16,976 nucleotides of DNA from a virus (taxonomy: Duplodnaviria; Heunggongvirae; Uroviricota; Caudoviricetes), in IMG/VR virus record IMGVR_UViG_2913112809_000005. One strand, written 5' to 3'. Both the position numbers and the translations under genes were made by a program. Within the stretch, counting starts at the first letter, position 1, and every line of letters starts with the position of its first letter. Below are positions 1 through 16,413 of this stretch, piece after piece. A model generated the notes under the pieces. That model was not told the origin of the DNA. It made no database searches and saw only the letters and a list, made by a program, of their open reading frames with translations.

Positions 1-1047
1 TCAATCAAACCAATTGCTAATTACAGTTTCAAACTTGTGAGTGACTTGCCACCATAAATAATTTTCCATGACAAATTGTTTTCCGTGATGGGCAACACTA
101 AGTAAATCAGGATTGTTAAGTGTTTTTTCTATATCCACAGCAATTGTTTCGGGTGTCATCGGTTCTTGCAGGTGATAGCCAGTATCTTTATCTTTTACAA
201 ATTCTATCATTCCACCTCGAGTACTCACCAGTACAGGTTTACCTGCGCTCATAGCTTCTATTGCCACCATACAAAATGGCTCCTGAAATTGAGATGGAAT
301 AACAACTAAATCAGCTAAAGAATAATATTGATGCATTTCCTCAGGAGTGACACCTCCTAACATATGGCAGTGTGAACCTGGTTGTTTTGCTAATTCTCGA
401 ATTTTCTGTTGGTAAATTCCTTTTTCACCCTTACTTTTGCTCGCATAATCTCCGATAACAACCAGTTCTATATCATCACGGGTTCTGATGAGTAGTTCAA
501 ACGCTTGTAGAAGTAACATCAATCCTTTTTCAGGAGATATCCTTCCCGCATAAAATATAATCTTCTTGTCAGGGGGGATGTTCAGATCAGATCTGTTTAT
601 TTTGGCATGGTGCTTGTCCGTATTATATGGATCTGTTCCATTTGGAACTATAGCGATATCTGCATCAGGAAGAAGCCTTTGATAATAGTCTTTTAAATAG
701 TTACTGGGGACGAGCATTTTGACATTGACATCCATTCCTTTTGGCTCATAAGCGTTATGCATATGCATCACTATTTTTGCATGAGGTGAACGCTCACGAA
801 TCTGGCGATATAATTTCATGCTATTATGCACAACGATTACACTGTTATCCGTAATATTGAAATCGTTAGCGACATTCAAAATTCGTTGAGAATAAGGAAA
901 GGGATCTATACGCGTCAATTTCTGAAATATGCGTTTATAAATTCGACCGAATCCGATGCGATGAATTGAACATCGTTCACTGACAGTGGTGATATCAGAA
1001 TAACCTTCTTCTTTTATACAAACAATTCTATTCGGTATTCTTGTCAT
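1..1047 (-). CDS. Glycosyltransferase, GT-B fold, family 4 (group 1 glycosyltransferase); complete 348-aa ORF
   Basis: 348-aa ORF with stop at 1-3. C-terminal half has the E-x7-E signature of retaining GT4 enzymes (EPFCMVAIEAMSAGKPVL) and a GT-B nucleotide-sugar-binding layout. Gene is visibly AT-rich compared with the adjacent tail cluster. Confidence 0.75.
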   Translation of the reverse strand: MTRIPNRIVCIKEEGYSDITTVSERCSIHRIGFGRIYKRIFQKLTRIDPFPYSQRILNVANDFNITDNSVIVVHNSMKLYRQIRERSPHAKIVMHMHNAYEPKGMDVNVKMLVPSNYLKDYYQRLLPDADIAIVPNGTDPYNTDKHHAKINRSDLNIPPDKKIIFYAGRISPEKGLMLLLQAFELLIRTRDDIELVVIGDYASKSKGEKGIYQQKIRELAKQPGSHCHMLGGVTPEEMHQYYSLADLVVIPSQFQEPFCMVAIEAMSAGKPVLVSTRGGMIEFVKDKDTGYHLQEPMTPETIAVDIEKTLNNPDLLSVAHHGKQFVMENYLWWQVTHKFETVISNWFD

Positions 1048-1492
1048 CTTAGCAACCTGATAAATCCAGGTTTCTACAGCAGCGGCGCAACGTGGAGGAA
1101 TGGAAAAAAATTGGCGTAACAGTGAAAATTATTTTATCAACCATGACGTATTATCCTTTCTTTTATTACCTTACTTTTCCAGAGGAGTGAGGCAGTAAAC
1201 ATGTGGTTTCCTCGCATCGTCTATGAGGGTACCCAAAGGACAAACTATATTTGAAGTGATTTATAACGCAATATATTTATGTTTAAAAATCGCTTCTTAT
1301 TCTTCACGTGAATGTTTTGTTTGGGATAATATTTTTTATAAATACGTTATAGCCTAATTATAAATAGCCAAGCGGAATAGTTCTCCATTTTCGGTCAGCC
1401 CTTTCGGGGTAAGGCGCAGAGGCCATTCTCTCTGTCTGACCGTGCTTGCATCGGGGAGGTGTACATATAAGCTATTTAGAGTATATAAGGAA

Positions 1493-1509
1493 CCGGGCAT
1501 TGTGCCCGG
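1493..1509 (-). terminator. Intrinsic terminator hairpin closing the tail operon
   Basis: Perfect 7-bp GC-rich inverted repeat CCGGGCA-ttg-TGCCCGG, 6 nt downstream (minus strand) of the TAA stop at 1516-1518, followed on the minus strand by a pyrimidine/U-rich stretch (TTCCTTATATACTC). Confidence 0.55.
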
Positions 1510-1515
1510 TGTTAT

Positions 1516-1971
1516 TTACGGATGGGATTGCCAGCTACTTACTAAGGCATACAAGTGATTTGGTGAGTATCGCCAGCTATCTTTTAATTGCAGGAATTCA
1601 GCACAAAACTCACTGCAAAACAGGCGATCGCGCTGTTCTTTATTGCCGGTGATAATTCCTAAGGCTCCGCGCCAGTCATAGCGTTTGCCATCATGTTTAC
1701 GGAAAAAAGCTTCCACATCCTGAAGATTGGCCTGGAGCGGTAGCATATCCCACTTGTCTGGAGGTAATGGCATTATCTTTCCCCGAACGCCTCGATCGCG
1801 CAGAGATGCGGAGTAACAAAGGTAACTCTTTTCGCCATGTACTACGGCTAATTCACAGTGGGAATAACTACCACGTGTGATTTTGCGTGTAAGCCAGTCA
1901 GCCAGTCTCGCAATACCCCGGTGCTCTGTTCGGCCCTTATAACAAGCGAGCCAGACAGTGGTTTTACTCAT
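1516..1971 (-). CDS. YiiX/YaeF-family (DUF830) permuted papain-fold protein, putative amidase/peptidase; no signal peptide
   Basis: 151-aa ORF translationally coupled to the upstream fibre-chaperone gene (4-nt overlap). Has the His-then-Cys permuted order with motifs SYSHCELAV, GKRYDWRGA and LFCSEFCAEF, matching from memory the YSH, KPYDF and CSE motifs of E. coli YiiX/YaeF. Last gene before the operon terminator. Confidence 0.55.
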   Translation of the reverse strand: MSKTTVWLACYKGRTEHRGIARLADWLTRKITRGSYSHCELAVVHGEKSYLCYSASLRDRGVRGKIMPLPPDKWDMLPLQANLQDVEAFFRKHDGKRYDWRGALGIITGNKEQRDRLFCSEFCAEFLQLKDSWRYSPNHLYALVSSWQSHP

Positions 1972-2573
1972 GGTTGCCAGCCTGTGGAGTAATCGTAGTC
2001 GAGCACCGCCTGAATATCGTCCAGAGCTTCCACTGCTGCGATATGGCGCTGGGCGTTGGCGAACAAGCGCATATCGTGATCCATTGTTACCGATTCAAAC
2101 TGGGCAGCGATTTCGTTGGTTAACTCGATCAGACCGTGGTTTTTGGTCTGCCACATTAAACCTGCCGGGATCTGCTTCGCCAGGCCCATTTTGGTTAACG
2201 ACATCTGCTGGATACGGCTGTTTGTATCACTGTGGAAGTGATGGTTATTGATGATGATGTAGTCTACCGTTATTTCATCTCGTCGATTTTTTATTTCCTG
2301 TGTAACCTGGGTCTTGGTATTCTCTAGTGCAATGGTAAATAACGTTTTGTCATATACCCATTTATCATTCTCTAAGATATAAAAGTTATCCGGAGGTGGT
2401 GTGGTGATAATTTTGAATGGGTCAAGACATATCCAGCAGATATTATCCTTTAATTTCCATTGCTCATCATTTACTGGTATTACCGAGTCCAGTAACACAA
2501 CATTTAATAAAGAATCGTCTATCCAGTCAATAACTTCAAAAGTTACTGGATTGTAATATGCATATTGTGTCAT
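1968..2573 (-). CDS. Putative tail-fibre assembly/chaperone protein (position-based call; C-terminal half possibly DUF4376-like)
   Basis: 201-aa ORF starting 4 nt after the tail-fibre stop on the same strand, the canonical position for a fibre chaperone. 5' half is visibly AT-rich and 3' half GC-rich, suggesting mosaic origin. Confidence 0.45.
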   Translation of the reverse strand: MTQYAYYNPVTFEVIDWIDDSLLNVVLLDSVIPVNDEQWKLKDNICWICLDPFKIITTPPPDNFYILENDKWVYDKTLFTIALENTKTQVTQEIKNRRDEITVDYIIINNHHFHSDTNSRIQQMSLTKMGLAKQIPAGLMWQTKNHGLIELTNEIAAQFESVTMDHDMRLFANAQRHIAAVEALDDIQAVLDYDYSTGWQP

Positions 2574-2577
2574 ATTT

Positions 2578-4131
2578 TCACCATGATATTTTTACAAAGC
2601 CATCTGAGCCGCGTCCGCCGGAAAAAGATGCTGATGTTTGATTATTTGCTGCACTACCACCAGCACCACCGGCACCATAACCAACGGCATTACCTCCGTT
2701 AGAAAGGGCTAAACCAATCCCCCCTAGGCCATATAGTGAATTCATTCCATTCCCACCAGGAGCAGAGTGTTGGTCAACCATGGTATTCCCACTACCGTTT
2801 CCACCTGTTCCCCCGTAAGCTACGCTGTCAGCAAATGATGAGTTCCCGCCTTGCATGCCATCTGAGGCATGAACATTCCAAAGAATACCTCCAGTTGATC
2901 CCATCTTTGATTCTAATTTTCCCCCTTGACCACCTACACCTCCCGCTCCGACAGTGACAGCGTAATTTGTTCCTGGAATGACTGTGACTATTGATAATTT
3001 TGTTTCTCCGCATTGACCGCCAAAACCCTGCGTACTATATGGAAAACCAGAGTTGCCTTTTGCGTATCCACCGCCACCGCCACCGCCTCCGCCACCGAGC
3101 ATTTCTATAAAAAGTAAGGACACCCCATCAGGAACAGTAAACGTTCCATTGGTGGTAAAGAACTGGATGTGAGAATTCGTTGACCTACTATATGCAGCAT
3201 TAGCCTTATCTATTGCCGCCTTCACCGCGCTCGGTGTCGCCGCCTCCGTCGTACTGTTGCTATCCGTCGCGTTATTAAGCTTCACAATCCCTTTTTGTGT
3301 CAGGGTACCATCCGGAACACCCGTAATCTGTCCCCAGGGATGCGTATGACTACCCGCAGCTTTACTATTCGCCAGGTCATACGCCGCCTTAACCGCGCTC
3401 GGTGTTGCCGCCTCTGTCGTGCTGTTGCTATTGGTTGCGTTATTAAGCTTCACAATCCCTTTTTGCGTCAGCGTACTATCTGGTATATCAGTAATCTGAC
3501 TCCAGGTATGACGATGATTTCGAGCCTCAATCATTGCCGCTTTCACCGCTTTTGGCGTAGCCGCTTTGGTTTCGTCATCACTGTCAGTGGCGTTACTCAA
3601 CTGTGTAAAGCCTTTTTGCGTTAACGTAGCATCAGGATGATTAGTCGAACGCTCATGTTCATCCAGTTGTGAATCAACATAATCCCGTGTTGCCAGTACA
3701 ATACTGGGGTCAACGGTGAGTGTTACCGCAGCCGTGTTGGACACTTCCATAATGAGACGAATGCAAACTTGCTTACCGCAGCCGCCGGGTAATAGCGGTT
3801 TATACGATTCCGGGAATTTACCGATAGCGATCAATTCACCATCAGTATCATAAACGCCAACTTCACGTACATACCAGCCGCCGATATTTTCGGGCAGCAC
3901 GAGTTCCGCAATTAACCAGTTAGGGTTATTTGGTGCAACTGTTAATGTATTTAAATCACCGCGCCATACTTCATGGCGTAATTTAGTTTGGCTGACGGTG
4001 GGTTCATAATATTGTCCTCCGCTGTCGCCAACAGCCATTTTTTGTAGATGAAGCTGTTTTTTATCCGCCAGAGCATTGGCAATTTTTGCCATTCCCCTGT
4101 CGGTGAGTAGAGTATAAAACTCATTATCCAT
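2578..4131 (-). CDS. Tail fibre protein (P2 gpH-like N-terminal baseplate-attachment domain, tandem fibre repeats, glycine-rich C-terminal tip)
   Basis: 517-aa ORF. N-terminus (MAVGDSGGQYYEP...HEVWRGDL...IAELVLPENIGGWYVREVGVYD...ESYKP) matches the conserved P2 gpH / Mu S N-terminal domain. Three tandem repeats of TLTQKG(I/F)..L.NAT.S...EAATP.AVKAA follow. C-terminal about 180 aa is extremely Gly-rich, including a run of 10 Gly. Confidence 0.85.
   Translation of the reverse strand: MDNEFYTLLTDRGMAKIANALADKKQLHLQKMAVGDSGGQYYEPTVSQTKLRHEVWRGDLNTLTVAPNNPNWLIAELVLPENIGGWYVREVGVYDTDGELIAIGKFPESYKPLLPGGCGKQVCIRLIMEVSNTAAVTLTVDPSIVLATRDYVDSQLDEHERSTNHPDATLTQKGFTQLSNATDSDDETKAATPKAVKAAMIEARNHRHTWSQITDIPDSTLTQKGIVKLNNATNSNSTTEAATPSAVKAAYDLANSKAAGSHTHPWGQITGVPDGTLTQKGIVKLNNATDSNSTTEAATPSAVKAAIDKANAAYSRSTNSHIQFFTTNGTFTVPDGVSLLFIEMLGGGGGGGGGGYAKGNSGFPYSTQGFGGQCGETKLSIVTVIPGTNYAVTVGAGGVGGQGGKLESKMGSTGGILWNVHASDGMQGGNSSFADSVAYGGTGGNGSGNTMVDQHSAPGGNGMNSLYGLGGIGLALSNGGNAVGYGAGGAGGSAANNQTSASFSGGRGSDGFVKISW
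3068..3097 (-). repeat. Imperfect hexanucleotide (GGTGGC/CCGCCA)n tract encoding a Gly10 run inside the tail fibre gene
   Basis: Plus strand reads ccaccgccaccgccaccgcctccgccaccg; on the coding strand this is GGT GGC GGA GGC GGT GGC GGT GGC GGT GGA. Confidence 0.8.
3185..3640 (-). repeat. Three tandem, diverged 150-170 bp repeats inside the tail fibre gene (phage tail-fibre repeat units)
   Basis: Near-identical DNA blocks are visible (e.g. ccgcgctcggtgtcgccgcctccgtcgt...ttattaagcttcacaatccctttttgtgtcag versus ccgcgctcggtgttgccgcctctgtcgt...ttattaagcttcacaatccctttttgcgtcag). The protein shows three copies of the TLTQKG...EAATPSAVKAA unit. Confidence 0.8.
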
Positions 4132-4133
4132 AA

Positions 4134-4781
4134 TTACTCCGGGTAAATAGATGTAATTTCAAGGCTCCATTGCCCTGTTCCGTAATAAATCGATGTGTTG
4201 TGCTGTACTTCCCGTATCTGGAAAGGTAAAACCGTCGTCAGTTCACCACCATAAAGTGCACAGCCAATAACAGGAATAGCACTTTGGTTAATGATCCAGA
4301 CGATTAATGCTTCCAGTTTTGAACGTGTGTTTTTATATTCATGAATGAGTTCTACCAAATCATTGAAAAGGTTTTCATCCATACCTTTATCCACCAGCTC
4401 TATATCCACCTTAAAAAAATAAGCCCTTCCCCCATATTCAAACCATTCTGAAATAGTTCCGGGTAATGAGAGTATTTCCAGCACCCGCCGCACCGCCCAA
4501 ATTGTTCCTTTATATTTATGCAGTTCAATGGCTTGTTTAATTAACTCGCGTTTCTCCCGCTCATCGGTGGTAAATAACCAACCTTCCAGCCCCTGAACGT
4601 GAAATTGTTCTGCAAGGGCTGGTAATGCCGAAGCATCAACCAGGTCGACCAGATAAACCATCAACGCCGTCAGATCGAGTTGGGCAAAACGCTCGGCGGC
4701 GATGTTTGCCAGAATGGAAAAACGCTCATCGCTGGCAAGCGGCGGCGGTGGCAGCAATTTATCCATCGCTGACTCCGGCAA
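4134..4781 (-). CDS. Baseplate protein, P2 gpI family (Mu gp48-like)
   Basis: 215-aa ORF with the characteristic N-terminal LLPPP..S....LA motif of gpI-family proteins; sits between gpJ and the tail fibre. True start may be the internal Met at about 4766 (MDKLLPPPP), which would remove the overlap with gpJ. Confidence 0.8.
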   Translation of the reverse strand: MPESAMDKLLPPPPLASDERFSILANIAAERFAQLDLTALMVYLVDLVDASALPALAEQFHVQGLEGWLFTTDEREKRELIKQAIELHKYKGTIWAVRRVLEILSLPGTISEWFEYGGRAYFFKVDIELVDKGMDENLFNDLVELIHEYKNTRSKLEALIVWIINQSAIPVIGCALYGGELTTVLPFQIREVQHNTSIYYGTGQWSLEITSIYPE

Positions 4782-5874
4782 TCGTGACGTCTATTGCGGT
4801 GCATTCCGCCCACTCATGCGCCTGCAAAATACGTTTTGTAGGCATATTCAGCGCAACGTCATAGACGCCATCGACCTGTAACACTTTGATTATCTGGTTT
4901 GGCACAATGTCCTGCCCCAGATGTTTCTGCCGCTGTTGCGTCCAGAGGCTAATCGCTTTACGCGCCGCAGCCAGCGTTGTCTCCTGATCGGCGGTGGTAA
5001 ACAGCATTAGCTGCGCACGGATCTCATACGGCACTCGAAGAGCGCATTTCGCACTCACTTTGTCGGTCAGCGGACGTTTTTTCTCCTTGCTAACCTCCTG
5101 TTCAATTTGCGCGAGCAGTTCCACTCCCGGCAGACCATTCAGCGTTAGCGGGTAGATCTCCACGCAGCCTTCTGGCAATCCCTCGTCCGGCCCCAGTACT
5201 GAAACGTCAATAATCGACTGGCTAACAGAAAGCGTATGGAAGCGGTATGCGCCATAGCTGCCCGCATTACTAAAGCTTTCTGGTGCCAGTTGGATACGCT
5301 GGCGCAATGCGTCATCGCTCTCTTCACCGCAGCCGCCCGTTGACGCAGTCAGGTTGGTTACGTTGATGTCATAATGACCAATCCTGTCGACCAGTGCGCT
5401 AATTTGTGCAGGCTGCCAGCCGTTACCCTGTTCACCTGCTGCGAGGCTGGTGGCAGGAACGGCGATATGCAAACTCCTGGCCGGAAGCAGAACATCTTCA
5501 TCGGTGGCGAACATCACGCTATCAGAGGCACTGGCCCGCGTCCCCTGGGGAATCAGGATATTGCTGGTATACGCACTGACGACCGAAAACTGCAACGTCG
5601 TTTTTGCCGGTTGTGCAGGCAAACGGTGAACGCCCACCAGCTCCCCTAAATAATCCAGCATTGGCGCGCGGGAATACGCGACCAGGTTTTGTTTCGCCGC
5701 TTCCTGAATGGCGATGCGTACAAGGTTTTCACGATAGGCAAACAGGTCGATGAGCAACCGCTCAGCCTGTGCAGGATAGAGTTTTTTACCGCTGGCATCT
5801 TCGTATTGCGCAATCATCTCACTGGTAATTTGCGCTGGATCGCGGTCAATAAAATTGGGTTCGGCTATCGCCAT
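4759..5874 (-). CDS. Baseplate protein, gpJ family (Mu gp47-like, T4 gp6-like wedge)
   Basis: 371-aa ORF in the conserved position between gpW and gpI; size and order match Baseplate_J proteins; overlaps both neighbours in the operon. Confidence 0.8.
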   Translation of the reverse strand: MAIAEPNFIDRDPAQITSEMIAQYEDASGKKLYPAQAERLLIDLFAYRENLVRIAIQEAAKQNLVAYSRAPMLDYLGELVGVHRLPAQPAKTTLQFSVVSAYTSNILIPQGTRASASDSVMFATDEDVLLPARSLHIAVPATSLAAGEQGNGWQPAQISALVDRIGHYDINVTNLTASTGGCGEESDDALRQRIQLAPESFSNAGSYGAYRFHTLSVSQSIIDVSVLGPDEGLPEGCVEIYPLTLNGLPGVELLAQIEQEVSKEKKRPLTDKVSAKCALRVPYEIRAQLMLFTTADQETTLAAARKAISLWTQQRQKHLGQDIVPNQIIKVLQVDGVYDVALNMPTKRILQAHEWAECTAIDVTIAGVSDG

Positions 5875-6224
5875 AACACCTCCGTTGAGTTGATTACGCC
5901 GTCAGCGGCGCGCCATTGCACACGTAACGTCAGATGTTCACCGTCGATTACAGGTGTCACCTTCAGCAACCGACAGCGCGGTTCCCACTGGCGAATGGCT
6001 TCCACCGACTCCCGTACCACATGCGGGATTGCCCGCTCGATGGGGTAATCGATGTAGTGCCACAAATTGCTGCCAAACAGCGGTCTGTGGGGATCACTGC
6101 CGCGCGGTGTACGCAGAATGATGTGTATTGCCTGGTGAATATCATCCAGTCCGCAGACGTATTTTTCAGGCCGCTGCAAGGCCGGTTGCCAGTGCAGCGT
6201 TGAGGGTCGTGTTTTTGTGTTCAT
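5865..6224 (-). CDS. Baseplate protein, GPW/gp25 family
   Basis: 119-aa ORF of the size and position of P2 gpW / T4 gp25 / Mu gp46 homologues, between the spike and gpJ. Confidence 0.75.
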   Translation of the reverse strand: MNTKTRPSTLHWQPALQRPEKYVCGLDDIHQAIHIILRTPRGSDPHRPLFGSNLWHYIDYPIERAIPHVVRESVEAIRQWEPRCRLLKVTPVIDGEHLTLRVQWRAADGVINSTEVLWR

Positions 6225-6297
6225 GAGGGTATTTTCGCCCTGAACGGGCTGCGGGGATATTAAAGCGATTTAGAAAACTGATTGATTAAAAAGAGAA

Positions 6298-6317
6298 AAC
6301 CCGCCATCAGGCGGGTT
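6298..6317 (-). terminator. Intrinsic terminator/attenuator between gpV and gpW
   Basis: 8-bp GC-rich stem AACCCGCC-tgat-GGCGGGTT, 5 nt downstream (minus strand) of the gpV TGA stop at 6323-6325, followed on the minus strand by TTCTCTTTTTAATCAATCAGTTTTCT. Confidence 0.6.
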
Positions 6318-6322
6318 AAACG

Positions 6323-7024
6323 TCAGTGTGAATGGTGGTTGGAGTTGCCACCGCTGTCCTGCAATGCGCCGCTGGCCTGAACGTTGCCGATCACGTTGAC
6401 ATTGCCAGTTATTGTGGCGGCGTTACCGATGCCTCCACTTCCTGCCATCCCGCCAAGCCAGGTGAGTTTTTTCATTACCGTCACGTTACCAGTAAAGGTG
6501 CTCATGGGCGCATCTACCGTCACTGCTGCCGCTTTAACATCGACCTTAGTGGCGTCGATGCTGACATCGGTCGCTTTAACATCGACAGTATCGGAAGTCA
6601 CGATGACCTGTTGGGCTTTAATCTCAACGTTGGGCGATGTCAGGCTGGTACGGTCGATAACCTCAATCACGATTTTCTCGATACCGCCGTTAATCGTCAG
6701 CTGGTGCGTGCTGCGGTCATATTCAAACGCTGCGCCATCAGAAAACTGGACGTAACGTTTATCGCGCGAGGCCACAGGCGCGGTGTCAACCGTAGAATAA
6801 ACTGCGCCCAGCACCACGCCATCTTCACCGTTATTGTCCAGCAGAACTTCCACTTGCTCGCCCATATCCGGTAGCCAGTAGTCTTTATTGTCCTGGGAAT
6901 TGCGTTGAAGTACCGCAAGCCAGTTGCTCTTCAGATTGTCACACTCCGGAAGCGTGACTCGCACCCGAACGCTGGTTTCGTCAATATCGCTGATAATCCC
7001 CGTTTGCCGGGTTACTCCTTTCAT
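6323..7024 (-). CDS. Baseplate central spike, gpV family (Mu gp45-like), with His-rich C-terminal tip
   Basis: 233-aa ORF with an N-terminal OB-fold-like region and a C-terminal repetitive beta-helix-like segment (VDVKATDVSIDATKVDVKAAAVTVDA), ending ...GGNSNHHSH. AGGAGG RBS 7-12 nt upstream. Confidence 0.8.
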   Translation of the reverse strand: MKGVTRQTGIISDIDETSVRVRVTLPECDNLKSNWLAVLQRNSQDNKDYWLPDMGEQVEVLLDNNGEDGVVLGAVYSTVDTAPVASRDKRYVQFSDGAAFEYDRSTHQLTINGGIEKIVIEVIDRTSLTSPNVEIKAQQVIVTSDTVDVKATDVSIDATKVDVKAAAVTVDAPMSTFTGNVTVMKKLTWLGGMAGSGGIGNAATITGNVNVIGNVQASGALQDSGGNSNHHSH

Positions 7025-7033
7025 ATTTCCTCC

Positions 7034-8074
7034 TTACTGGCTGGTCGCTGGCCCGCGCGACACGTCGATTTCAGTGGTATAGCCGCTGCGCACAAAACTG
7101 TGAGTCGATTTATCAATCAGCCACTGACCGGAAAGCACGCCAAAATCGGTCAGTTCAATTTTATTGCCCGCCGTCAGATCCGGGCAGCCCATCATTGTGA
7201 GCGTTCCGGTTTGCTGATATTCGTTGTGGCTGTCGAGTGCAGCGTTGGCCTTTGCCTGTGCTGCGCCAACGTCCGTCGCCCGACTGTTCAGTTTTAGCGT
7301 GTCGGCACTGGTGCCGACTCCACGGGCAGACGGTTTTTGCTGGCTGTCGTGAGTGTAGATAACCAGTTCTTTTTTCTTACTATTTTGATGCTGTACGGTG
7401 GCGTTTTTGTAGATACGGTTAATGGTATCTTTGAAGGTGAAATGCGAAACGTCTTTGCGGTTGATCTTTTTAACCGACGCCAGGCAGCGCAGCGTGGGTA
7501 AATGCGAAAAAATCAGCTCTTTGGTGCTCACCTTTACTGCATAGCCATATTCGCAGGCCAGGCGCTTGAGAAATCCAACATCGGTTTCGCCGTACTGTGT
7601 CACCCGGTCAATCGTCAGCGGCTCGATTTTGCCCACCAGCTTTAGGCCGTGAGTTTGTGCGATACGGCTGGCGATAGCCGAAAGCGTCGTTTCTTCAAAA
7701 CCCTGGCTGTTACGGGTGCGCAGCGCCTGATTGACGGAAGTGGCGATGCCATCAATATTTACCGTAGAAGGTGGCGCTGAAATGTCGATTTTATCAATAA
7801 TATACTGACCACAATCGAGCAGCTTTTCCCCCTGATAACCCATATGCAGCGCCAGCGTATCGCCTTTGCCGGGATACCACTCTTTTATCCAGCGTCCATC
7901 AGTGTCATCCAGTGTAATTGCGATGGTATCTGACTCGTTTTTGATGCTGTCGTGGTAACTGATGCTGGTGACATAGGGTGTGATGTCATAAGTGATATCT
8001 TTATGCCCATACCAGAGGGTAAAAATGGGCGTGAGTGTGGCAAAGACGCCACCAGTTACGCTTATCTCAGCCAT
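7034..8074 (-). CDS. Baseplate hub protein, P2 gpD family (late control gene D protein; Mu gp44-like)
   Basis: 346-aa ORF of the size and position of gpD/gp27-like hub proteins, directly before the spike. Confidence 0.8.
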   Translation of the reverse strand: MAEISVTGGVFATLTPIFTLWYGHKDITYDITPYVTSISYHDSIKNESDTIAITLDDTDGRWIKEWYPGKGDTLALHMGYQGEKLLDCGQYIIDKIDISAPPSTVNIDGIATSVNQALRTRNSQGFEETTLSAIASRIAQTHGLKLVGKIEPLTIDRVTQYGETDVGFLKRLACEYGYAVKVSTKELIFSHLPTLRCLASVKKINRKDVSHFTFKDTINRIYKNATVQHQNSKKKELVIYTHDSQQKPSARGVGTSADTLKLNSRATDVGAAQAKANAALDSHNEYQQTGTLTMMGCPDLTAGNKIELTDFGVLSGQWLIDKSTHSFVRSGYTTEIDVSRGPATSQ

Positions 8075-8274
8075 GGTGGGATCTCCGATAAGGTTTTATT
8101 GACGGAAATGACCGGAATAATGAGCTGAATACCGGAAGGCAGCACCGGGTAAATGGCGACATGTGGATTGGCGGCGATTATGCGTTCATAAGCCAGCGCA
8201 TCACCGTAGTAATGCCATGCCAGATTATCCCAGCGTTCGCTGTCGGTGGTGATATGTTCAAGGTATCGCATCAC
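8062..8274 (-). CDS. Tail protein X (P2 gpX family, LysM-like)
   Basis: 70-aa ORF containing the conserved gpX motif (WD.LA..YYGD....E.II.ANP); ATGA-type overlap with the upstream gpU-like gene. Confidence 0.75.
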   Translation of the reverse strand: MMRYLEHITTDSERWDNLAWHYYGDALAYERIIAANPHVAIYPVLPSGIQLIIPVISVNKTLSEIPPWLR

Positions 8275-9224
8275 CAGCTCCTCGTAATGGTCGCGGCAGC
8301 AAACTGGCTCACTGTGGGAGTGGTTTGTTGTACCGTTGTTCGTGCCTGATCAACCAACGTTGCGGCTTTATCGAACGTCGCTTGGGCGATGCCGCTGGTA
8401 ATGTCGTCGAAAAGCGCCTGAGCATGGTCAACCAGCGTACTGGCGTCATTGGCGCAGTCCCGGATACCTGGCATGTTACCCAGTAAAGCTTTAATCTGCG
8501 CCGACAACGCTTTTGGGAGTCCTGCCAGCGTTTGCAGATCCGTTGGCTGTTTAAACAGGGTTTCGATGGCGTCGATTGTCTTTTTCAATGACGTAATTAT
8601 CTTTTCACACTTTTCTTTTAACGCTTTGGCCTCTTTAATCATTGCTTTCACTTTTGCCACCGTTTTTTTAATATCTTCAATGGCTTGTGTCAGTTCATCC
8701 AGCATCTCTTTGGCCTTACGCATACCTTCTTCAATGGCGTTTAATATCTGATCAAACCAGGACTCCACCATGTCGGGAAAATTGCTCGCCTTTTCCTCAA
8801 TGTTAGGCTCCTGGGTGGTAATCGCCGGAGGTAAAAGTGGATTTTTAGGATCGCCGGTGTACTCCTGGAGCGACATCGTTCCGTTTTGGGCAATCACATT
8901 GCCCCAGGGATCGGTGTGCTGGTGGGTGGCGGTTAGCTCTGTAATTACAAACCAGCCGCGATAATCGCCATTGCCAAATACCAGTGCCATCGCCTTGTGA
9001 GCAAGCATGGCTTCACGCAGTCGATTCAGCTCTGTTGTGGGCTGGCAAAACTGGCTGTGCAGGGAAAATTCCAGCGCCAGTATATCCAGCTTATCGCCAA
9101 TAAACTGCACGCCGGGCTTGCCTTCTATACGGGCATGTGTGGCGTAATCCACGCCCATTGTGCTTTTAAAGCCGTCCCAGAATGTGACAACCTTAAATTC
9201 AATCTCTCCTAAAACGGCATACAT
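8271..9224 (-). CDS. gpU-like tail protein with a roughly 175-aa C-terminal alpha-helical/coiled-coil extension
   Basis: 317-aa ORF. First about 140 aa follow the P2 gpU pattern (M..LG...F......F..........G.P..QF.G...D...L...L......L..L...........G.G...G.FVITEL). The remainder is Lys/Glu/Ala-rich with heptad-like periodicity (KAKEMLDELTQAIEDIKKTVAKVKAMIKEAKALKEKCEKI...). Stop/start overlaps the tape measure gene. Confidence 0.7.
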   Translation of the reverse strand: MYAVLGEIEFKVVTFWDGFKSTMGVDYATHARIEGKPGVQFIGDKLDILALEFSLHSQFCQPTTELNRLREAMLAHKAMALVFGNGDYRGWFVITELTATHQHTDPWGNVIAQNGTMSLQEYTGDPKNPLLPPAITTQEPNIEEKASNFPDMVESWFDQILNAIEEGMRKAKEMLDELTQAIEDIKKTVAKVKAMIKEAKALKEKCEKIITSLKKTIDAIETLFKQPTDLQTLAGLPKALSAQIKALLGNMPGIRDCANDASTLVDHAQALFDDITSGIAQATFDKAATLVDQARTTVQQTTPTVSQFAAATITRSW

Positions 9225-11584
9225 CAGGCATACCCCCGGCGCTGTTGTTGCGCCATTACGTCGTTAATTATTCTTTCCAGTTCGCGTTTACTCATCGTCA
9301 ACACGTTCTGAATCTCTTTAGTATTGTTTGGTCCGTTACCCTGCACGGTAATCTGTGGCGAAAAAGTCACCTGGACTTTTCCAGGGGAACGGGAGGGTAG
9401 CGTCGCCGGTTTGGTTACGGATTTATCTGGTAAAGAGGTCGACGCGAGTTTTGCGGCAGGCACTGATGACGGCGTTGTCGTTTTGCTGGATGGCGCGAGT
9501 TGTTTCCCCACTGGAGGCGTTAAAATCGCACCGGCAACGCCTGGAACAACGGTCGCGGGGGAGACTGAGGCAGAATTAGTGGTGCCTGTAGCAGCCGCAG
9601 CCGATCCTTCTGTGCTGATACCCATTGTGGATTTTAGCCAGTCTGGTATGGCGTTTTTGACCTGGTCAATAATGCCTTTCAGAGCGGGAAAAGCATTCAT
9701 TATGCCGTCAGCCAGGCTACCCAGTATATTGCTGCCGAACTCGCTAAAACTCGCAGGCATCTCAACACCAAACCAATTCATCACTCCGGCAAAGGCGCTG
9801 TAGAACAGCCCCAGTGGCGACCAGTCGCAAATCAAACGGCTAATACCAGCAATACCGCCATTAAAGGCCGTTGTGATACGCAGCCAGATGGCGGAAAAGA
9901 ACCTGGAGATAGGTTCCCAGTTGCGATAAATCAGATAAGCAGCGCCCGCAATCGCAGTGATGACCAGACCAATGGGATTCATCAATAACACCCGGCCTAG
10001 CGAGAGAACGGTTCGACCAACCAGTTTCAATGCTCCGAGCAGGCTACGACCAAGCAGTTGCGTTAGCCATTTTGCGCCGCCACCCAATGACTTAACCGCC
10101 GATAACACCTTACTCGCTGCGCCGCCGAGCGCCAGACTTGCCCTGACTTTCAGGAAGATATCGACCAGACGAATTAACGGCGAGGCGATGAAGTTCGCGC
10201 CCAGCTTTAAAACATTCAGCGCGCCGTTAAACAGCCAAATCGCCCCGACGATTTTCGCAATGTTTTGCACCAGCGCCGGGTGTTCACGTAGCCATGCGCT
10301 GAACTGGCGAACAACCGGAGTAAGGCTTTGCGCCAGCTCGCCAATCAGCGGCATTAATTGCAAGCCAATGCTGAGCCATAAATCATTTAACGCCAGCTGT
10401 AACGCTTTAGTTTGTTCAATGGGCGAGGCCATCTGCGCAGAAAAGTCAGCGTCAATCAGATTCTTACTGCTGGCTTGCATGGCAGAGGCTTTTAACTGGC
10501 GATATTCCTCCATATTCGCCAGCACAGGTGCCAGGAATTCCACTGTTTGCGCATCGCCGAACATTTCGCCCAGATTAAACTGCGTCACCATCGATTGCAG
10601 CGCAGTGCTGCGAGCAGATAAATCTTCAATCTTCATGGTGCGTTTGAAGGTGTCGAGGATCGCCGGATTCATCTTCTCAAGCTGCATTTGCACGATATGA
10701 GTCATGGCTTCGCTAACACCCATACCGTTTTGCTGATGCTCAAGCAGAGAACCTTGCAGATCAACGCCCTGGCTGGCGAACCAGTTATCGGTTTTTTTCG
10801 AAAAGGTGGTTTGCAGAAAGTGGTCGAAATTCTCCGCCGCCGCACTGGCACTGGCCCCGTTTTTTATGGCGATCTGCATGGTGGCGGTCAGTTCAGCCAT
10901 ACCTTCCAGACCCTGAGCGCCGATTTTACCTGCAAATTTCTCTATCCACTGCGTTTGTTCGGCAACGGCAGGCCCACCGCTTTTGCTAATGCCATACATC
11001 ATGTTTTGCGCGGCGTGGAAATTTTCTGGGGCAATATTCAGTCGATCATGAGTCGCGAGCGCGGCATTCGCCCACGTTTCAGCACTTTCGCGCGTGGCGG
11101 TGGCAGCTTTGGCGATCTCCGGCATATAACGGTTGAGATCCTGCATCGACGACAAATTGCCTTCGATCAGCGTTTGGGCTGCGTTCTGTAAGGTGGTCTG
11201 CTGCTGGTTAAAATCCATGCTCCAGCCGCGCAGATTAAGGCTGAGCGTCTCGCGGGTTGTAGCATTCATCCCACCTTTGGTCGCCATATTGACCATGTTG
11301 TCCTGGAACTCATATGGCAACTTCCAGTCGGGGGCTTCAACATTGAATACCTTGCTAAATTGCCCGGCAAATGTTTGGGTTTTCTCCATTAGATCAGCGC
11401 GGTTCCGGCTATTTTCCTCCAGGCGGAGAGCAGAATCGGCAAGTTGCTGCGTTAGTTTGATTACTGTCGCTTGCTGAGAAGAGAGAGCTAACAAAGTTCT
11501 GGCGTTGAGTGAGCCGTAACGGGCTATTGCCTGCGTCAACGTCTCATTACGCGCCTGAAGCTGGGTAATAATATCGTTGGCCAA
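9224..11584 (-). CDS. Tail tape measure protein
   Basis: 786-aa ORF, largely alpha-helical with internal hydrophobic segments, between the chaperone gene and gpU as in all long-tailed phages. Apparent initiator is TTG at 11584; the first in-frame ATG is about 66 codons in, so the exact start is uncertain. Confidence 0.85.
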   Translation of the reverse strand: MANDIITQLQARNETLTQAIARYGSLNARTLLALSSQQATVIKLTQQLADSALRLEENSRNRADLMEKTQTFAGQFSKVFNVEAPDWKLPYEFQDNMVNMATKGGMNATTRETLSLNLRGWSMDFNQQQTTLQNAAQTLIEGNLSSMQDLNRYMPEIAKAATATRESAETWANAALATHDRLNIAPENFHAAQNMMYGISKSGGPAVAEQTQWIEKFAGKIGAQGLEGMAELTATMQIAIKNGASASAAAENFDHFLQTTFSKKTDNWFASQGVDLQGSLLEHQQNGMGVSEAMTHIVQMQLEKMNPAILDTFKRTMKIEDLSARSTALQSMVTQFNLGEMFGDAQTVEFLAPVLANMEEYRQLKASAMQASSKNLIDADFSAQMASPIEQTKALQLALNDLWLSIGLQLMPLIGELAQSLTPVVRQFSAWLREHPALVQNIAKIVGAIWLFNGALNVLKLGANFIASPLIRLVDIFLKVRASLALGGAASKVLSAVKSLGGGAKWLTQLLGRSLLGALKLVGRTVLSLGRVLLMNPIGLVITAIAGAAYLIYRNWEPISRFFSAIWLRITTAFNGGIAGISRLICDWSPLGLFYSAFAGVMNWFGVEMPASFSEFGSNILGSLADGIMNAFPALKGIIDQVKNAIPDWLKSTMGISTEGSAAAATGTTNSASVSPATVVPGVAGAILTPPVGKQLAPSSKTTTPSSVPAAKLASTSLPDKSVTKPATLPSRSPGKVQVTFSPQITVQGNGPNNTKEIQNVLTMSKRELERIINDVMAQQQRRGYA

Positions 11585-11675
11585 AATTGTTTCTCTTTAA
11601 TTATTGATAATGGCCCACTGGTTATTTTTCTAAAAAAGGGGCTGGGAAGAAATAAACCTGGCGGGCTTTGAAGAA

Positions 11676-11698
11676 CTCGCAGACATCAGGTCTGCGAG
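11676..11698 (-). other. Strong stem-loop in the gpE-tape measure intergenic region
   Basis: Perfect 9-bp inverted repeat CTCGCAGAC-atcag-GTCTGCGAG; on the minus strand it encloses the stop codon (11686-11688) of the +1 frame that overlaps the 3' end of the gpE gene. Confidence 0.6.
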
Positions 11699-11773
11699 CC
11701 ATATTCGATCTTTATTTGGTCGCTGGCTTCATCCAGCCAGTTGCTAAAGTCATCTATGGTGAGCGCGTCTATC

Positions 11774-12091
11774 TCACTGGGTGGAAAGCGAAACCATCTC
11801 GCCAGTAGCGCCATTGCCTGCCATAGCTGGGGAGGATTCTGTAACCACGGTAAGCATGGATTGAAATCGTTTCTGCAATGCCTGGTAATCCAGCAAATCC
11901 ATTTCAGCTAAATCTTCTGGCACCAGTCCGGTCATCGCCGCCATTAGCGGTTCATCCCACTCTTCGGGTTTTTCGCTGATCCGGCGCGCGTTGCGCATAT
12001 CTTTTACTTTCAGGCGACGTAATTGCAGCGAGTCGATAGTATTTCCTGCTGCCGACGTAAATGGGAACTGTAAGATATAATGCTCTTTCAT
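11774..12091 (-). CDS. Tail assembly chaperone, P2 gpE family
   Basis: 105-aa acidic ORF between the tube and tape measure genes, the conserved position of the frameshifted chaperone pair. An alternative reading frame stays open past its stop (see findings). Confidence 0.7.
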   Translation of the reverse strand: MKEHYILQFPFTSAAGNTIDSLQLRRLKVKDMRNARRISEKPEEWDEPLMAAMTGLVPEDLAEMDLLDYQALQKRFQSMLTVVTESSPAMAGNGATGEMVSLSTQ

Positions 12092-12117
12092 TTTGTATCC
12101 TTATTTATGTTGCGAAG

Positions 12118-12137
12118 TTCGGGGCCGTAGCCCCGAA
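12118..12137 (-). other. Stem-loop immediately downstream of the tail tube gene
   Basis: 8-bp GC-rich inverted repeat TTCGGGGC-cgta-GCCCCGAA between the tube stop (12141-12143) and the gpE start (12091); no clear U-tract follows, so more likely an mRNA-processing/stability or partial-attenuation element than a full terminator. Confidence 0.45.
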
Positions 12138-12140
12138 TAA

Positions 12141-12665
12141 TTAGCCACCGATGTTATTGCGATAGGTACTTAATTGATCCACGCCGTTAACCCGAAAAAT
12201 ATTCGCCATATAATCAAGTTCAAGCAGCGTTTCACCATCGACCACTTGCTTAATATAAGTACAGCCAAAGGCGCTGCTGAATTCCGGGTTTTCATTCTGT
12301 TTAAATGTGCCCAGTGGATTCTTTTTAAACATCACGGTTAAATGTGTCACTAACGCTAATTGATTCGCTTTCCCCTGGGAGTTATAGCAATCAATACTGG
12401 AGCGGCACTGTAATGCTACCGCCTGCCACGGGTTTGCCGTTTTACGCATTACGTCCTGATAAAAGGAGTTCCATTTAATTTCCCCCTCCAGTTTATCGAA
12501 ACCAGCCGGGAGTTCGATTTTGCCGACCATACCCAGTGCCTTATGCTCTTGCATAATTAAACTGACATCAGGCAATTTAATTTCGGTTGCACGACCTAAA
12601 AGGTTATTACCATCGAGATAAATATTGGCGTTGGTAATACGGTTAATTTGAATTTTTCCAGCCAT
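12141..12665 (-). CDS. Tail tube protein (P2 FII family)
   Basis: 174-aa ORF; size and N-terminal pattern (N.N.YLDG...LG...EIKLP) match FII-type tube proteins; start overlaps the sheath stop. Confidence 0.8.
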   Translation of the reverse strand: MAGKIQINRITNANIYLDGNNLLGRATEIKLPDVSLIMQEHKALGMVGKIELPAGFDKLEGEIKWNSFYQDVMRKTANPWQAVALQCRSSIDCYNSQGKANQLALVTHLTVMFKKNPLGTFKQNENPEFSSAFGCTYIKQVVDGETLLELDYMANIFRVNGVDQLSTYRNNIGG

Positions 12666-14095
12666 TAGCTATTGCTCTCCAGAGAGACTAAATATTCAGA
12701 AGTAATTTCAGTTTCAAACGTCAGACGTTCCAGCGGCGGCGGCGGGGTGAATTTATAGCTCAGCAATAAATGACCGGCGCTGAGTTCAGCCGGTGAATTT
12801 CGTGCCGGATCGTACCAGCACTCAAAGCCAAGCAGTGCGCCGTCGGCAATTAGTTTTCGGCCCCAGGTATTTACCGATTCGGTCAGTGCGTCAATAATTG
12901 CCTGATTAATAGGCATATCAATATACTGCTGACTGAAATAACGGATTGACTCATTGATTACATCGCCTGTCCGGCGGACGTTTTCAAAGTTACGCATATG
13001 GGTCACGGTAGGCCATGCCGCTGTGCGGTTACCCCACAAGCGCAGACCAGAACCGTAACTATTGAAAATAGTGGTAATGCCGTTTTCGTTGAGCTGATTC
13101 ACTTCGCTTTGTGGATCATCAATCATTGCGGAAAGCGAACGTTCAATACCGGTAATACCCTGAATTTCCTGGTTTGAGTTGCTCCACCAGAAACCTTTTT
13201 CGAGGTCTACTTTGGCACGTAGCCCGGCAGCGCGCGAAGAGAGTGGTTCGAGAACTTCCTGGTTAGTGATGCCATCGTAAACTTTGACGTGTGGGTAACA
13301 TAAACGCACACGATCAGAGCTGGTATTGAAGTTGATAGCCCCTTGCGAACCGCGTCCAGCCAATACCTGCTGGAATGTCGTCCCAATCGGAGCATCAATG
13401 TAGGTAATCGCACCGAGTTTTTCCGCTTGTGCAATCAGCTCAGTAGTTACTGATTTTTGCGTACAAAACACGGGAGCAAGCAGGATTTTGGCGTAGAAAC
13501 CGTACAGGTTATAGGTGTCCTGAAGGAGTTTCATCCCCGTGCGGTCGCCTGCGGTATTTAGGGCACCGATAATATCGGCTGCGGTGACCTTTGTAGGGTC
13601 GCACCAGGAATAATAGGCGCAAACTTTCGCTCCAGGAGGAATGTCGGCTCCTTTACGAGTGATTATGCCTGTTTGTTCATCTACGCTAAATGCTGTGGTG
13701 TTAAAGGTTGATGAATTTGATGAAGAGGGCTTTAGTACCACGTTACGCACATTGCGGTGAGCGAGCTTCGCCTGGTTGTTAGCATCAAAAGTGATACTCT
13801 CATTGCTGATGCTGGAGCTATGTTTTGCCGGATCCAGCACGTTAATCACCACCACCGTACCGGCACCGTGGTCATAAATCGCCTTCAGTGCCTGTGGGAT
13901 CGTAAAGTTAGCCAGAGTCGAGCCAAACTGCGCAGCATCGCTTTCAGAAAGACATAATGTTGGTTTATTTACCGGACCACAGGGGGCCGTACCGATTAAA
14001 GCGATGACGGCGGATTTTACCGCTTTAACCGGACGAGGGCCGGTTTCAATTTCAATGGTTTCTACACCGTGCAGGTAATTAGCTGCCATGTACAA
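12665..14095 (-). CDS. Contractile tail sheath protein
   Basis: 476-aa ORF directly upstream of the tube gene; size and position are typical of myovirus sheath proteins (P2 FI / Mu L class). Confidence 0.85.
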   Translation of the reverse strand: MYMAANYLHGVETIEIETGPRPVKAVKSAVIALIGTAPCGPVNKPTLCLSESDAAQFGSTLANFTIPQALKAIYDHGAGTVVVINVLDPAKHSSSISNESITFDANNQAKLAHRNVRNVVLKPSSSNSSTFNTTAFSVDEQTGIITRKGADIPPGAKVCAYYSWCDPTKVTAADIIGALNTAGDRTGMKLLQDTYNLYGFYAKILLAPVFCTQKSVTTELIAQAEKLGAITYIDAPIGTTFQQVLAGRGSQGAINFNTSSDRVRLCYPHVKVYDGITNQEVLEPLSSRAAGLRAKVDLEKGFWWSNSNQEIQGITGIERSLSAMIDDPQSEVNQLNENGITTIFNSYGSGLRLWGNRTAAWPTVTHMRNFENVRRTGDVINESIRYFSQQYIDMPINQAIIDALTESVNTWGRKLIADGALLGFECWYDPARNSPAELSAGHLLLSYKFTPPPPLERLTFETEITSEYLVSLESNS

Positions 14096-14276
14096 TTTCC
14101 TCTACGTTATTTTGTTCTTCCTGAGTGATGACAGGAGTCAGATGATTGCGGGCAATCATGGTTATGACCCACTCGTTGTCTTCTGGCAGATCAATTTCAC
14201 TGTTCGGCCACAATAAGATTTCTTGTCCGTCGGCAAGGGTGACGCCGCTTGCCGGGCCGTTGTAGATGTATTTCAT
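14079..14276 (-). CDS. Small conserved tail-region protein (Mu gp38-like position)
   Basis: 65-aa ORF, coupled by a 4-nt overlap to the upstream gene and overlapping the sheath start. Confidence 0.45.
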   Translation of the reverse strand: MKYIYNGPASGVTLADGQEILLWPNSEIDLPEDNEWVITMIARNHLTPVITQEEQNNVEEIVHGS

Positions 14277-14728
14277 TCAGTTTCCTCGTAATTAACTTCC
14301 GTAAGCAGGGGAAGATCCGTGCTTTCCTGTTCAGCGATAAACAGCGAGCTGGTCGCCATTTCCAGGATGTAGCGGCAGAAACCGCCGCTCTCACCCGTAT
14401 TAATTTCTTTTTCAAGCCAAAGCAGACGATCGCAATCAGGAAGCTGAAGGCCACCCAATGCTCTGCGTATGCGATCAAGAGCGTTTAACGCGTCACAATT
14501 TTTGCCAACAATAACGGTGGCGGTTAAGCGGAGTATTTGCTGTTGCACGATGGCATCACTGCTTTCGGGCGTGGCAAAGAAAGAACCGCTATAATTAATA
14601 ATCACTGCAACTTGCTGTGTCTGTGGAATATATTTCTGGGCATCCGTAGCTGAAATAAATACGTCCATTTCGGGGTTGTGTTCACGTAATCTGGTCACAA
14701 CAGAATTCATTACAGATAAAATTTCCAT
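14273..14728 (-). CDS. Putative tail completion/terminator-type protein (Mu gp37 / DUF1834-like); first gene of the tail operon
   Basis: 151-aa ORF with an AGG-containing RBS upstream; position and N-terminal pattern (ME.L..M...VV.RL) recall Mu gp37-family proteins. Functional call is tentative. Confidence 0.45.
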   Translation of the reverse strand: MEILSVMNSVVTRLREHNPEMDVFISATDAQKYIPQTQQVAVIINYSGSFFATPESSDAIVQQQILRLTATVIVGKNCDALNALDRIRRALGGLQLPDCDRLLWLEKEINTGESGGFCRYILEMATSSLFIAEQESTDLPLLTEVNYEETE

Positions 14729-14842
14729 ATGGGTTGTACCTTAATTACCGCTCACTTCGTTATCGTTGAAATATATTCTGAAGCAGTGAAGGTGAAGAAT
14801 CTTTTAATGTAATTTAGAGAAAAAATTGAATGGCTATAAAAA

Positions 14843-14870
14843 ATCCCCACACTTACGTAAAGGTGGGGAT
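14843..14870 (-). terminator. Intrinsic terminator after the lysis cassette (potentially bidirectional)
   Basis: 8-bp stem ATCCCCAC...GTGGGGAT with an internally palindromic loop, beginning 4 nt after the TAA stop at 14875-14877; followed on the minus strand by TTTTTATAGCC and on the plus strand by GTATTTAATA. Confidence 0.7.
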
Positions 14871-14874
14871 GTAT

Positions 14875-15189
14875 TTAATAGCTGCCACGTTGTAACAGCT
14901 CGATTTTGCTATATAAGGCATCCAGCTTTGCTTCTAATACTGCTTGCCCACGAAGATAATCTTCTCTGCGGACATAATGCAGCGGAAGCTCGGCACGAAA
15001 TTCAAGAAACTCTCTTTCCAGTTTCGACCAACTTGTTTCTGATTCCCTGCGGGCATTTTCCAGAGACTCAAAACGCTCATTAAGTCGTTTTTCAATTTGC
15101 GCTAACAGCAGTTTTCCGGCAGCAAACATTAATCCAACGAAGGAAAGCATAAGGGAGATCACTTCCCAAAAATCGATACTGAGTTTCAT
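14875..15189 (-). CDS. Membrane-anchored coiled-coil protein, candidate spanin-like/lysis accessory protein
   Basis: 104-aa ORF with one N-terminal hydrophobic helix (FWEVISLMLSFVGLMFAAGKLLL) followed by a charged helical region; GAGGGG RBS; directly downstream of the lysin gene. Confidence 0.45.
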   Translation of the reverse strand: MKLSIDFWEVISLMLSFVGLMFAAGKLLLAQIEKRLNERFESLENARRESETSWSKLEREFLEFRAELPLHYVRREDYLRGQAVLEAKLDALYSKIELLQRGSY

Positions 15190-15201
15190 CGGCCCCTCTG
15201 A

Positions 15202-15807: not shown

Positions 15808-15809
15808 CA

Positions 15810-16393: not shown

Positions 16394-16413
16394 TACTGTA
16401 TACGTATACAGTA
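16394..16413. promoter_or_regulatory. LexA (SOS) box, near consensus
   Basis: TACTGTATACGTATACAGTA, a perfect CTGT-N8-ACAG palindrome matching the gammaproteobacterial LexA consensus TACTGTATATATATACAGTA at 18 of 20 positions. Lies in the divergent intergenic region; a TTGACA hexamer sits 21 bp to its right (16435-16440) and a TATTAT hexamer overlaps its left end on the minus strand. Confidence 0.7.

Follow-up and report, generated by a model that had tools for sequence, protein, structure and literature searches.

The window, by which we mean the whole stretch of 16,976 nucleotides analysed here, begins with an AT-rich gene next to a phage-tail cluster. We consider it likely that this is an accessory gene for a WaaK-type LPS-core transferase, carried in a swappable cassette that is separate from the tail cluster. 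As judged from its sequence and position, it appears to be a stray WaaK-type paralogue outside the waa cluster, an ordinary accessory gene and no new system. The features on which the argument turns are the following.

1–1144, minus strand: WaaK-family GT4 glycosyltransferase gene with a +1 frameshift (NF012028, PF00534, match to protein P0133)
1104–1110, minus strand: homopolymer run, A7 on the plus strand and T7 on the coding strand, site of the frameshift (comparison with 27 loci)
1145–1491, no strand: AT-rich upstream region of the transferase cassette (composition, comparison with relatives)
1492–1510, no strand: GC-rich hairpin ACCGGGC-N5-GCCCGGT after the last tail gene (limit of E. coli homology, terminator scan)
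1516–1971, minus strand: orf151, conserved hypothetical that closes the tail cluster (identical copy in Escherichia sp. E4742)
1968–4131, minus strand: DUF4376 protein in the tail-fibre assembly position, and tail fibre (PF14301; PF12571, PF03406, PF21722)
16635–16976, plus strand: Mor-family activator at the lysC end of the island, running off the right edge (PF08765, 128 bits)

The AT-rich end of the window encodes a WaaK-family glycosyltransferase

The GC content falls from about 49.5% (0.495 at 1516–16097) to 38% (0.380 at 1–1515), the minimum among 279 other windows of 1515 bp being 0.451. Both parts of this stretch contribute, with a GC of 0.377 for the transferase gene (1–1144) and 0.391 for 1145–1515. 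The open reading frame at 1–1047 on the minus strand matches the Pfam families PF00534 with 131 bits (cutoff 26.4) and PF13692 with 95 bits, which confirms the AT-rich GT4 locus beside a GC-richer tail cluster that a sequence-only reading had described. The drop in GC is not unique within the window, where other short AT-rich patches occur at about 2300–2570 (0.34) and at 16098–16634 (0.33). Relatives of the transferase gene are likewise low in GC (0.34–0.39), AT-richness being the usual signature of horizontally acquired waa-type genes. A Pfam match to GT4-conflict (51 bits) was rejected as a sign of a defence function; it is weaker than the matches to the general GT4 domains and is found in all 120 homologues listed.

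The frame at 1–1047 encodes 348 aa, which correspond to residues 33–380, and 32–33 N-terminal residues are missing. The true start is an ATG at 1144 on the minus strand, with an AAGGA ribosome-binding site ahead of it, and the N terminus reads MVDKIIFTVTPIF. The first 13 codons (1144–1106) are in a different frame from the ORF at 1–1047 and the T7 run at 1104–1110 joins both frames, a +1 frameshift at about codon 13. When one T is deleted, the product has 380 aa and is identical at 380/380 positions to P0133 (QCT87839.1, Escherichia sp. E4742). This reconstructed protein scores 669 bits against NF012028, the NCBIfam model for WaaK-type LPS N-acetylglucosaminyltransferases and the best match in that collection, over positions 1–380 of 380 (curated cutoff 618 bits), while the ORF as encoded reaches 590 bits, below the cutoff, over profile positions 34–380 only; the intact reading frame expected of an NF012028 member is thus interrupted in the window gene by the T7 frameshift. 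The family had therefore been named correctly at the outset, but the gene extends over 1–1144 and is longer than the ORF at 1–1047. By the same token, the AT-rich gap is real but had been placed wrongly at 1048–1515, the non-coding stretch being 1145–1515.

The EX7E motif (E288-PFCMVAI-E296) is invariant in an 8-sequence alignment, and sequence matches in the PDB (e.g. 6kih, 3c4q) span the C-terminal domain only. Residues 8–26 are nearly all invariant in the family in the 8-sequence alignment, and position 19 is C in the window gene and G in most relatives. Since the truncated ORF is without this segment, the transferase as encoded in the window is very probably inactive.

The frameshift is found in a single assembly

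All 27 comparison loci are in frame. Close relatives supplied 25 of these loci (from E. ruysiae, E. fergusonii, E. albertii, Salmonella, E. coli R3 and metagenomes), and in every one the run is T6, CCA ATT TTT TCC being read as P-I-F-S; it is T4 in two more distant waa-cluster homologues. Among the loci compared, T7 is restricted to the window's assembly, and the exact 348-aa product is on record solely from contig PDHY01000043.1. The intact 380-aa protein comes from two other accessions labelled E4742, namely QCT87839.1 (a 5.12-Mb chromosome) and TLJ07069.1, and the neighbouring orf151 is identical in the three accessions labelled E4742. Since the frame is intact in other accessions labelled E4742, the extra T is either a homopolymer sequencing error in a draft or a very recent inactivating mutation.

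One possibility, which we regard as real but doubtful, is that the gene is a decaying pseudogene in the window strain, with a genuine frameshift, a promoter lost together with 138 bp of upstream DNA, and no current function. The length of the T-run speaks for it, as do the loss of the nearly invariant residues, the record from one contig only and a 138-bp deletion that is unique to the window lineage, with its junction at 1168|1169, immediately ahead of the ribosome-binding site. In a simple scan we found no sigma-70-like site on the minus strand upstream of the gene, and with the 138-bp loss and the frameshift combined the gene may not be expressed at all in the window strain. Against decay stand the intact proteins recorded under the same strain name, which make a homopolymer error at least as likely as a real pseudogene frameshift, and the gene has no disabling change besides the frameshift. 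Besides, dN/dS among the yjbD-site copies is 0.14–0.22, from which we conclude that purifying selection maintains the gene in the lineage. The 138-bp segment present in relatives contains no promoter-like site in a simple scan, so that its loss need not matter. For annotation, the gene should be given as 380 aa long, the 348-aa ORF being an artefact of the frameshift.

The transferase occupies a slot between a tail-only island and yjbD

Beyond the fibre genes the window encodes homologues of gpI, J, W, V, D, X and U, together with tape measure, chaperone, tube and sheath proteins, Gp37, an SLT transglycosylase, a holin and a 104-aa ORF without assignment (14875–15189). There is no database record for the products of the ORFs at 15202–15885 and 16350–16595, and no Pfam or NCBIfam match for orf151. 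Head, integrase or replication genes recognisable by Pfam were not found in the window. The island looks like a tail-only, contractile, tailocin-like cluster with Mor and lysis genes, set between lysC and yjbD; lysC lies just beyond Mor in related loci, and the lysC end of the window is inferred from those. The prophage described in a paper on an ST131 'tailocin' is another one, in P2 order, and the lysC–yjbD locus is not mentioned there. In agreement with the first reading, a tRNA scan of the region gave none and no integrase was found among the ORFs scanned or with a recorded Pfam match, several ORFs having no Pfam match. An Rfam scan of the region including 1145–1491 (E up to 1) returned no match, and folding of 1145–1520 yielded a modest z-score of -2.6 and no known family.

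To the left of the window, contig PDHY01000043.1 carries yjbD (DUF3811), rluF, a sugar-regulator/PTS operon, pepE and yjbB, and no further polysaccharide genes. The rest of a polysaccharide cluster that might have lain there is therefore absent, the core genes yjbD and rluF lying there instead, and the transferase is a solo gene. Its cassette, a single gene in about 1.7 kb, is delimited by the hairpin at 1492–1510 and by yjbD. Homology to the E. coli tail cluster ends at window position 1493, where each of 196 genome matches begins (megablast). Homology to all E. coli sets in again at a point 207 bp to the left of the window, 43 bp ahead of the start of yjbD. The slot so defined is filled in E. 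coli A10 by a slipin gene and an RlaP-type nucleotidyltransferase gene, with no transferase.

Compared with the K-12-type empty site, about 200 bp of the 252-bp lysC–yjbD spacer have given way to a block that comprises Mor to orf151 and the cassette, and the transferase gene falls inside the inserted block. An element boundary had been suspected where the composition changes. A boundary does exist at this point, but it runs between two modules, at the 1493 hairpin, while the outer edge of the island is placed by the empty site 43 bp before yjbD; the comparison with genomes lacking the tail cluster thus located the junction but revealed no recognisable target duplication.

The statement that no direct repeat is visible holds within the window, which contains one copy only, but a 26-nt repeat that includes the hairpin (81% identical) brackets the cassette, at 1492–1517 and at 59–84 bp beyond the left edge. 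The outer hairpin sits 3' of the transferase gene and has a terminator-like tail in relatives. The hairpin at 1492–1510 is terminator-like on the plus strand, with no good T-run after it on the strand of the tail operon. CCGGGC-N5-GCCCGG-like hairpins recur in E. coli and E. fergusonii at several further junctions between modules. We make no claim for these hairpins as recombination sites, as they are also ordinary terminators, and the bracketing pair may simply be that. The transferase gene is co-oriented with the tail operon and lies 371 bp downstream of it; given this arrangement and the hairpin without a good T-run, the transferase may be transcribed together with the tail genes and would then be tied to them functionally. 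In annotation terms, the true border between the modules is to be set at the hairpin at 1492–1510, and the slot between tail cluster and yjbD exchanges cassettes, transferase in one case and slipin/nucleotidyltransferase in the other.

The gene belongs to a clade of WaaK-type copies outside the waa cluster

A single protein query against species-representative genomes returned no relative, while an alignment query did. Species-representative genomes contributed 22 loci of the family, and waa-cluster markers are adjacent in 18 of them, with waaL in 15 of these 18; the window gene lies outside the waa cluster, between orf151 and yjbD and not beside waaL. A waa-cluster homologue next to waaL, only 54% identical to the window gene, is present as well in the type strains of E. 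whittamii and E. albertii, and we therefore regard the yjbD-site gene as an additional, divergent paralogue. A neighbour-joining tree (no bootstrap) unites the yjbD-site copies, a stray Salmonella gene and the copies on P1-like phage-plasmids in one clade, and in the same unbootstrapped tree this clade is sister to canonical Salmonella WaaK.

The window protein resembles WaaK (RfaK) in NCBIfam family, in length (380 aa), in sequence (66–69% identity, with 69% for Salmonella), in the invariant N-terminal segment and EX7E motif, and in its similarly low GC. It differs from it in lying outside the waa cluster, in being a second, divergent copy and in being frameshifted here. The stray Salmonella enterica gene, located between umuDC and a non-specific endonuclease/lpxR and also present in the subsp. 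arizonae type strain, encodes a protein (P0003) that is 75% identical. It belongs to the same clade, has a GC of 0.39 and, like the window gene, stands alone, with short ORFs on either side, but it occupies another chromosomal site with no phage-tail genes nearby.

A 69–70% identical gene is present, together with a DapH-like acetyltransferase gene, on about 16 plasmids of 50–124 kb whose hosts are E. albertii, E. fergusonii and E. coli. On the one plasmid that we examined, E. albertii p2RM9973 (NZ_CP043272.1), the gene is directly beside tail-fibre and fibre-assembly genes, and the flanks are 95% identical to P1, P7 and RCS47. This copy shares with the window gene both the clade and the position next to fibre and assembly genes. 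In contrast, it resides on a true phage-plasmid, has an acetyltransferase partner and is convergent with the fibre genes, and canonical Salmonella WaaK is at least as close to the window gene. Transferase cargo is not mentioned in a preprint on phage-plasmids.

GtrABC glucosylation and Oac acetylation, known from P22- and Sf-type phages, modify surface polysaccharides from the edge of a phage-derived element. By description, the window locus is alike in having a surface modifier at such an edge, but it encodes a cytoplasmic GT4 with the core as target, whereas GtrA/B/C form a membrane system and the O antigen is the target. The window element also lacks an integrase or att site and gives no sign of co-inheritance with the gene.

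Transferase and tail cluster appear to have been shuffled independently

We searched 5426 complete E. coli genomes by megablast, scoring the gene at 80% nucleotide identity or more. The tail cluster is present in 196 of them, and the transferase gene in none at this threshold. Copies that are 94–95% identical at the aa level occur in E. ruysiae and other Escherichia, where the order tail cluster–orf151–transferase–yjbD is found in 23 places, and 83% identical copies in E. fergusonii and E. albertii are always at the yjbD site. In E. fergusonii the transferase gene lies between the copies of a duplicated yjbD–rluF' fragment and an oppositely oriented slipin/RlaP pair separates it from the tail cluster, while in E. 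albertii a second, truncated 3' gene fragment and an RlaP remnant stand between the tail cluster and the full copy.

The transferase is also found at loci without the tail cluster. The metagenomic loci L003–L006 keep Mor and the 3' end of orf151, in the E. albertii loci L045 and L046 a 3' portion of Mor is left, and the E. fergusonii locus L013 keeps the slipin/RlaP block. Because Mor or orf151 remnants remain, the tail-less loci whose junctions were examined (L003 and L045) are deletion derivatives. The proposal would have fallen if the transferase were part of a conserved core LPS or capsule locus present at this site in strains without the tail cluster. Tail-less strains do have the gene at the same site, but no core LPS or capsule locus is there, and L003 and L045 once had the cluster.

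Synonymous divergences point in the same direction. Between E4742 and E. ruysiae, dS is 0.09 for the transferase, 0.40 for gpJ and 0.36 for rluF, whereas between E4742 and E. fergusonii it is 0.59, 0.07 and 0.68, respectively. From these incongruent values we conclude that cassette and tail cluster were shuffled independently, with a breakpoint between them. On this evidence, they would be neighbours in a recombination hot spot and not one co-inherited unit.

The sequence-only reading had suggested that the transferase may be surface-modification cargo, serving self-protection against the cell's own particle or serotype conversion. As a lysogenic-conversion or self-immunity gene of the tail cluster, it would alter the LPS core in such a way that the tail particle does not bind the cell that made it, or that cell's debris; alternatively, it would exclude core-binding phages. 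Position lends this some appeal: in E4742, E. ruysiae (the 23 places) and E. albertii the gene comes directly after the fibre, assembly and orf151 genes in the same orientation, it lies inside the inserted block, and the P1/P7-like phage-plasmids place a related gene plus an acetyltransferase beside fibre and assembly genes, their copies grouping with those of the yjbD site in the tree without bootstrap. Fibres of the kind found in the window commonly bind the LPS core. Distribution and divergences speak to the contrary, and we hold the proposal to be unlikely. None of the 196 E. coli genomes with the tail cluster has the transferase, and the only fibre that matches the one in the window over its full length, and shares its C terminus, is in E. 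coli A10, where slipin/RlaP stands in place of the transferase. At least four unrelated fibre C termini occur among strains with the transferase. Oppositely oriented genes and a yjbD copy intervene in E. fergusonii, and the transferase was kept through three independent deletions of the tail cluster, in addition to the incongruent divergences. The phage collection holds no record with a close homologue, and in the window it is the transferase that is frameshifted, while every predicted tail ORF is open. Considered as a moron, the gene is inside the element relative to the empty site, but its history and distribution are not those of co-inheritance; it has a deviant composition and, in relatives, a terminator-like hairpin after it, with no promoter-like site upstream on the coding strand. 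A specific pairing of the transferase with the tail particle of the window is thus unlikely on present sequence comparisons, while a general role in altering core receptors is possible.

A broader version of this idea, which strikes us as less plausible still, is that a mobile WaaK-type clade travels with tail-fibre modules, on the lysC–yjbD island as well as on P1-like phage-plasmids, and caps the core receptor, leading to self-immunity or phage exclusion. Lastly, slipped-strand switching between T6 and T7 in a contingency tract, turning LPS modification on and off, is highly improbable: repeat tracts do switch LPS-modifying transferases in other bacteria, the frameshift lies exactly in a homopolymer at codon 13 and tract length differs between assemblies labelled as the same strain, but the tract is short, tracts of that length change rarely, the coding sequence for P-I-F-S dictates it, the 27 other loci from five species groups are all in frame (25 with T6, two with T4), canonical waa-cluster homologues share or interrupt the run with no sign of variation, and tract length does not vary among isolates, T7 being seen in the window assembly only.

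Predicted activity and consequences for the LPS core

WaaK of Salmonella and of the E. coli R2 core adds a terminal alpha-1,2 GlcNAc branch that is needed by the O-antigen ligase (PMC13293308, citing Heinrichs et al. 1998). A retaining GT4 enzyme by family, it uses UDP-GlcNAc as donor and an outer-core glucose of LPS as acceptor (PMC13293308). Returning to the reading that we favour, an accessory WaaK-type transferase in a cassette of its own, its family makes the gene product a plausible modifier of the cell surface, namely of the LPS core. When intact, the protein would be expected to place a GlcNAc-type side branch on the outer core of the host LPS, with donor, acceptor and effect taken from the family. 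The sugar and the acceptor could differ from those of canonical WaaK, given that 31% of the residues differ and that position 19 is C. An altered core epitope would possibly change O-antigen ligation and the receptors for phages and tail particles.

If the intact enzyme alters the outer core, non-coli Escherichia would have a further source of core diversity, which typing restricted to the waa locus overlooks, and sensitivity to core-binding phages and tail particles could shift. Should the WaaK-type clade indeed be mobile with tail-fibre modules, which we doubt, it would represent a core-level counterpart of O-antigen lysogenic conversion.

The lysC-yjbD tail island

Window 1516-16976: the island at the lysC-yjbD site.

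The content of this island consists solely of a Mor activator, a holin, an SLT lysozyme and contractile-tail genes, and no Pfam-recognisable head, integrase or replication genes were found among its ORFs, scanned or on record. From its gene content the island looks like a tailocin-like cluster. It occupies this one site in 196 of the 5426 complete E. coli genomes and, beyond that species, in E. fergusonii, E. albertii, E. ruysiae and Escherichia sp. E4742. The tail-fibre C-termini are mosaic, as seen by comparing window 2578-4131 with L014 2393-3973 (E. fergusonii) and L049 7667-11098 (an E. albertii plasmid): the E. fergusonii C-terminus (residues 318-526) displays 57% identity to that of a P1-like plasmid fibre, and the window fibre has a glycine-rich C-terminal domain that recurs only in E. 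coli A10.

WaaK-type transferases at other sites, and the upstream region of the window gene

L049 4457-6143: WaaK-type transferase and DapH/GlmU-like acetyltransferase, E. albertii plasmid NZ_CP043272.1.
L007-L012 and L022, 10001-11143: stray WaaK-type gene, 75% identical, Salmonella enterica, the type strain of subsp. arizonae among them.

The WaaK-type gene and the acetyltransferase are carried together by about 16 P1/P7-like phage-plasmids, a cargo of which we found no mention in the literature searched. In the one plasmid examined (L049), the pair adjoins the tail fibre and fibre-assembly genes, with a holin/darA block on the other side; in P1, the invertible C-segment and cin adjoin the fibre genes. 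The stray Salmonella gene lies near thrS, distant from the waa cluster, with umuDC on one side and a non-specific endonuclease/lpxR on the other.

Upstream of the window transferase, the minus strand of window 1145-1520 folds somewhat better than shuffled sequences (z = -2.6) and had no match in Rfam. Within it, 86 bp (window 1361-1446) are 78% identical to a sequence without annotation that occurs in 70 E. coli genomes. A 7-bp inverted repeat (CGGTCAG ... CTGACCG) was also spotted by eye in this region, at about 1390-1445.

Cassette exchange beside yjbD

L001 4086-6010 (E. coli A10) and L013/L014 6101-8025 (E. fergusonii): slipin (Band_7) and RlaP-type nucleotidyltransferase pair.
L013/L014 8511-9342 and 11190-12377 (E. 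fergusonii): duplicated yjbD-rluF' fragment, ~750-830 bp, on both sides of the transferase.
L044/L047 5952-6397 and 6622-6709 (E. albertii): truncated second transferase fragment and RlaP remnant.

In E. coli and E. fergusonii, the slipin/RlaP pair is a cassette that takes the place of the transferase; in some cases a zeta-toxin gene or an ORF of 242 aa accompanies it. The pair may be a defence-type module. The yjbD-rluF' duplication in E. fergusonii is the pattern expected of single-crossover integration; the integrating circle would have carried the transferase together with a piece of yjbD-rluF. In E. albertii, the truncated fragment corresponds to the 3' part of the transferase and is 82% identical to the window allele as far as the downstream hairpin; the RlaP remnant has the tail cluster on one side and a full transferase copy on the other. 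Together, the 3' fragment and the RlaP remnant point to repeated replacement of the cassette in E. albertii.
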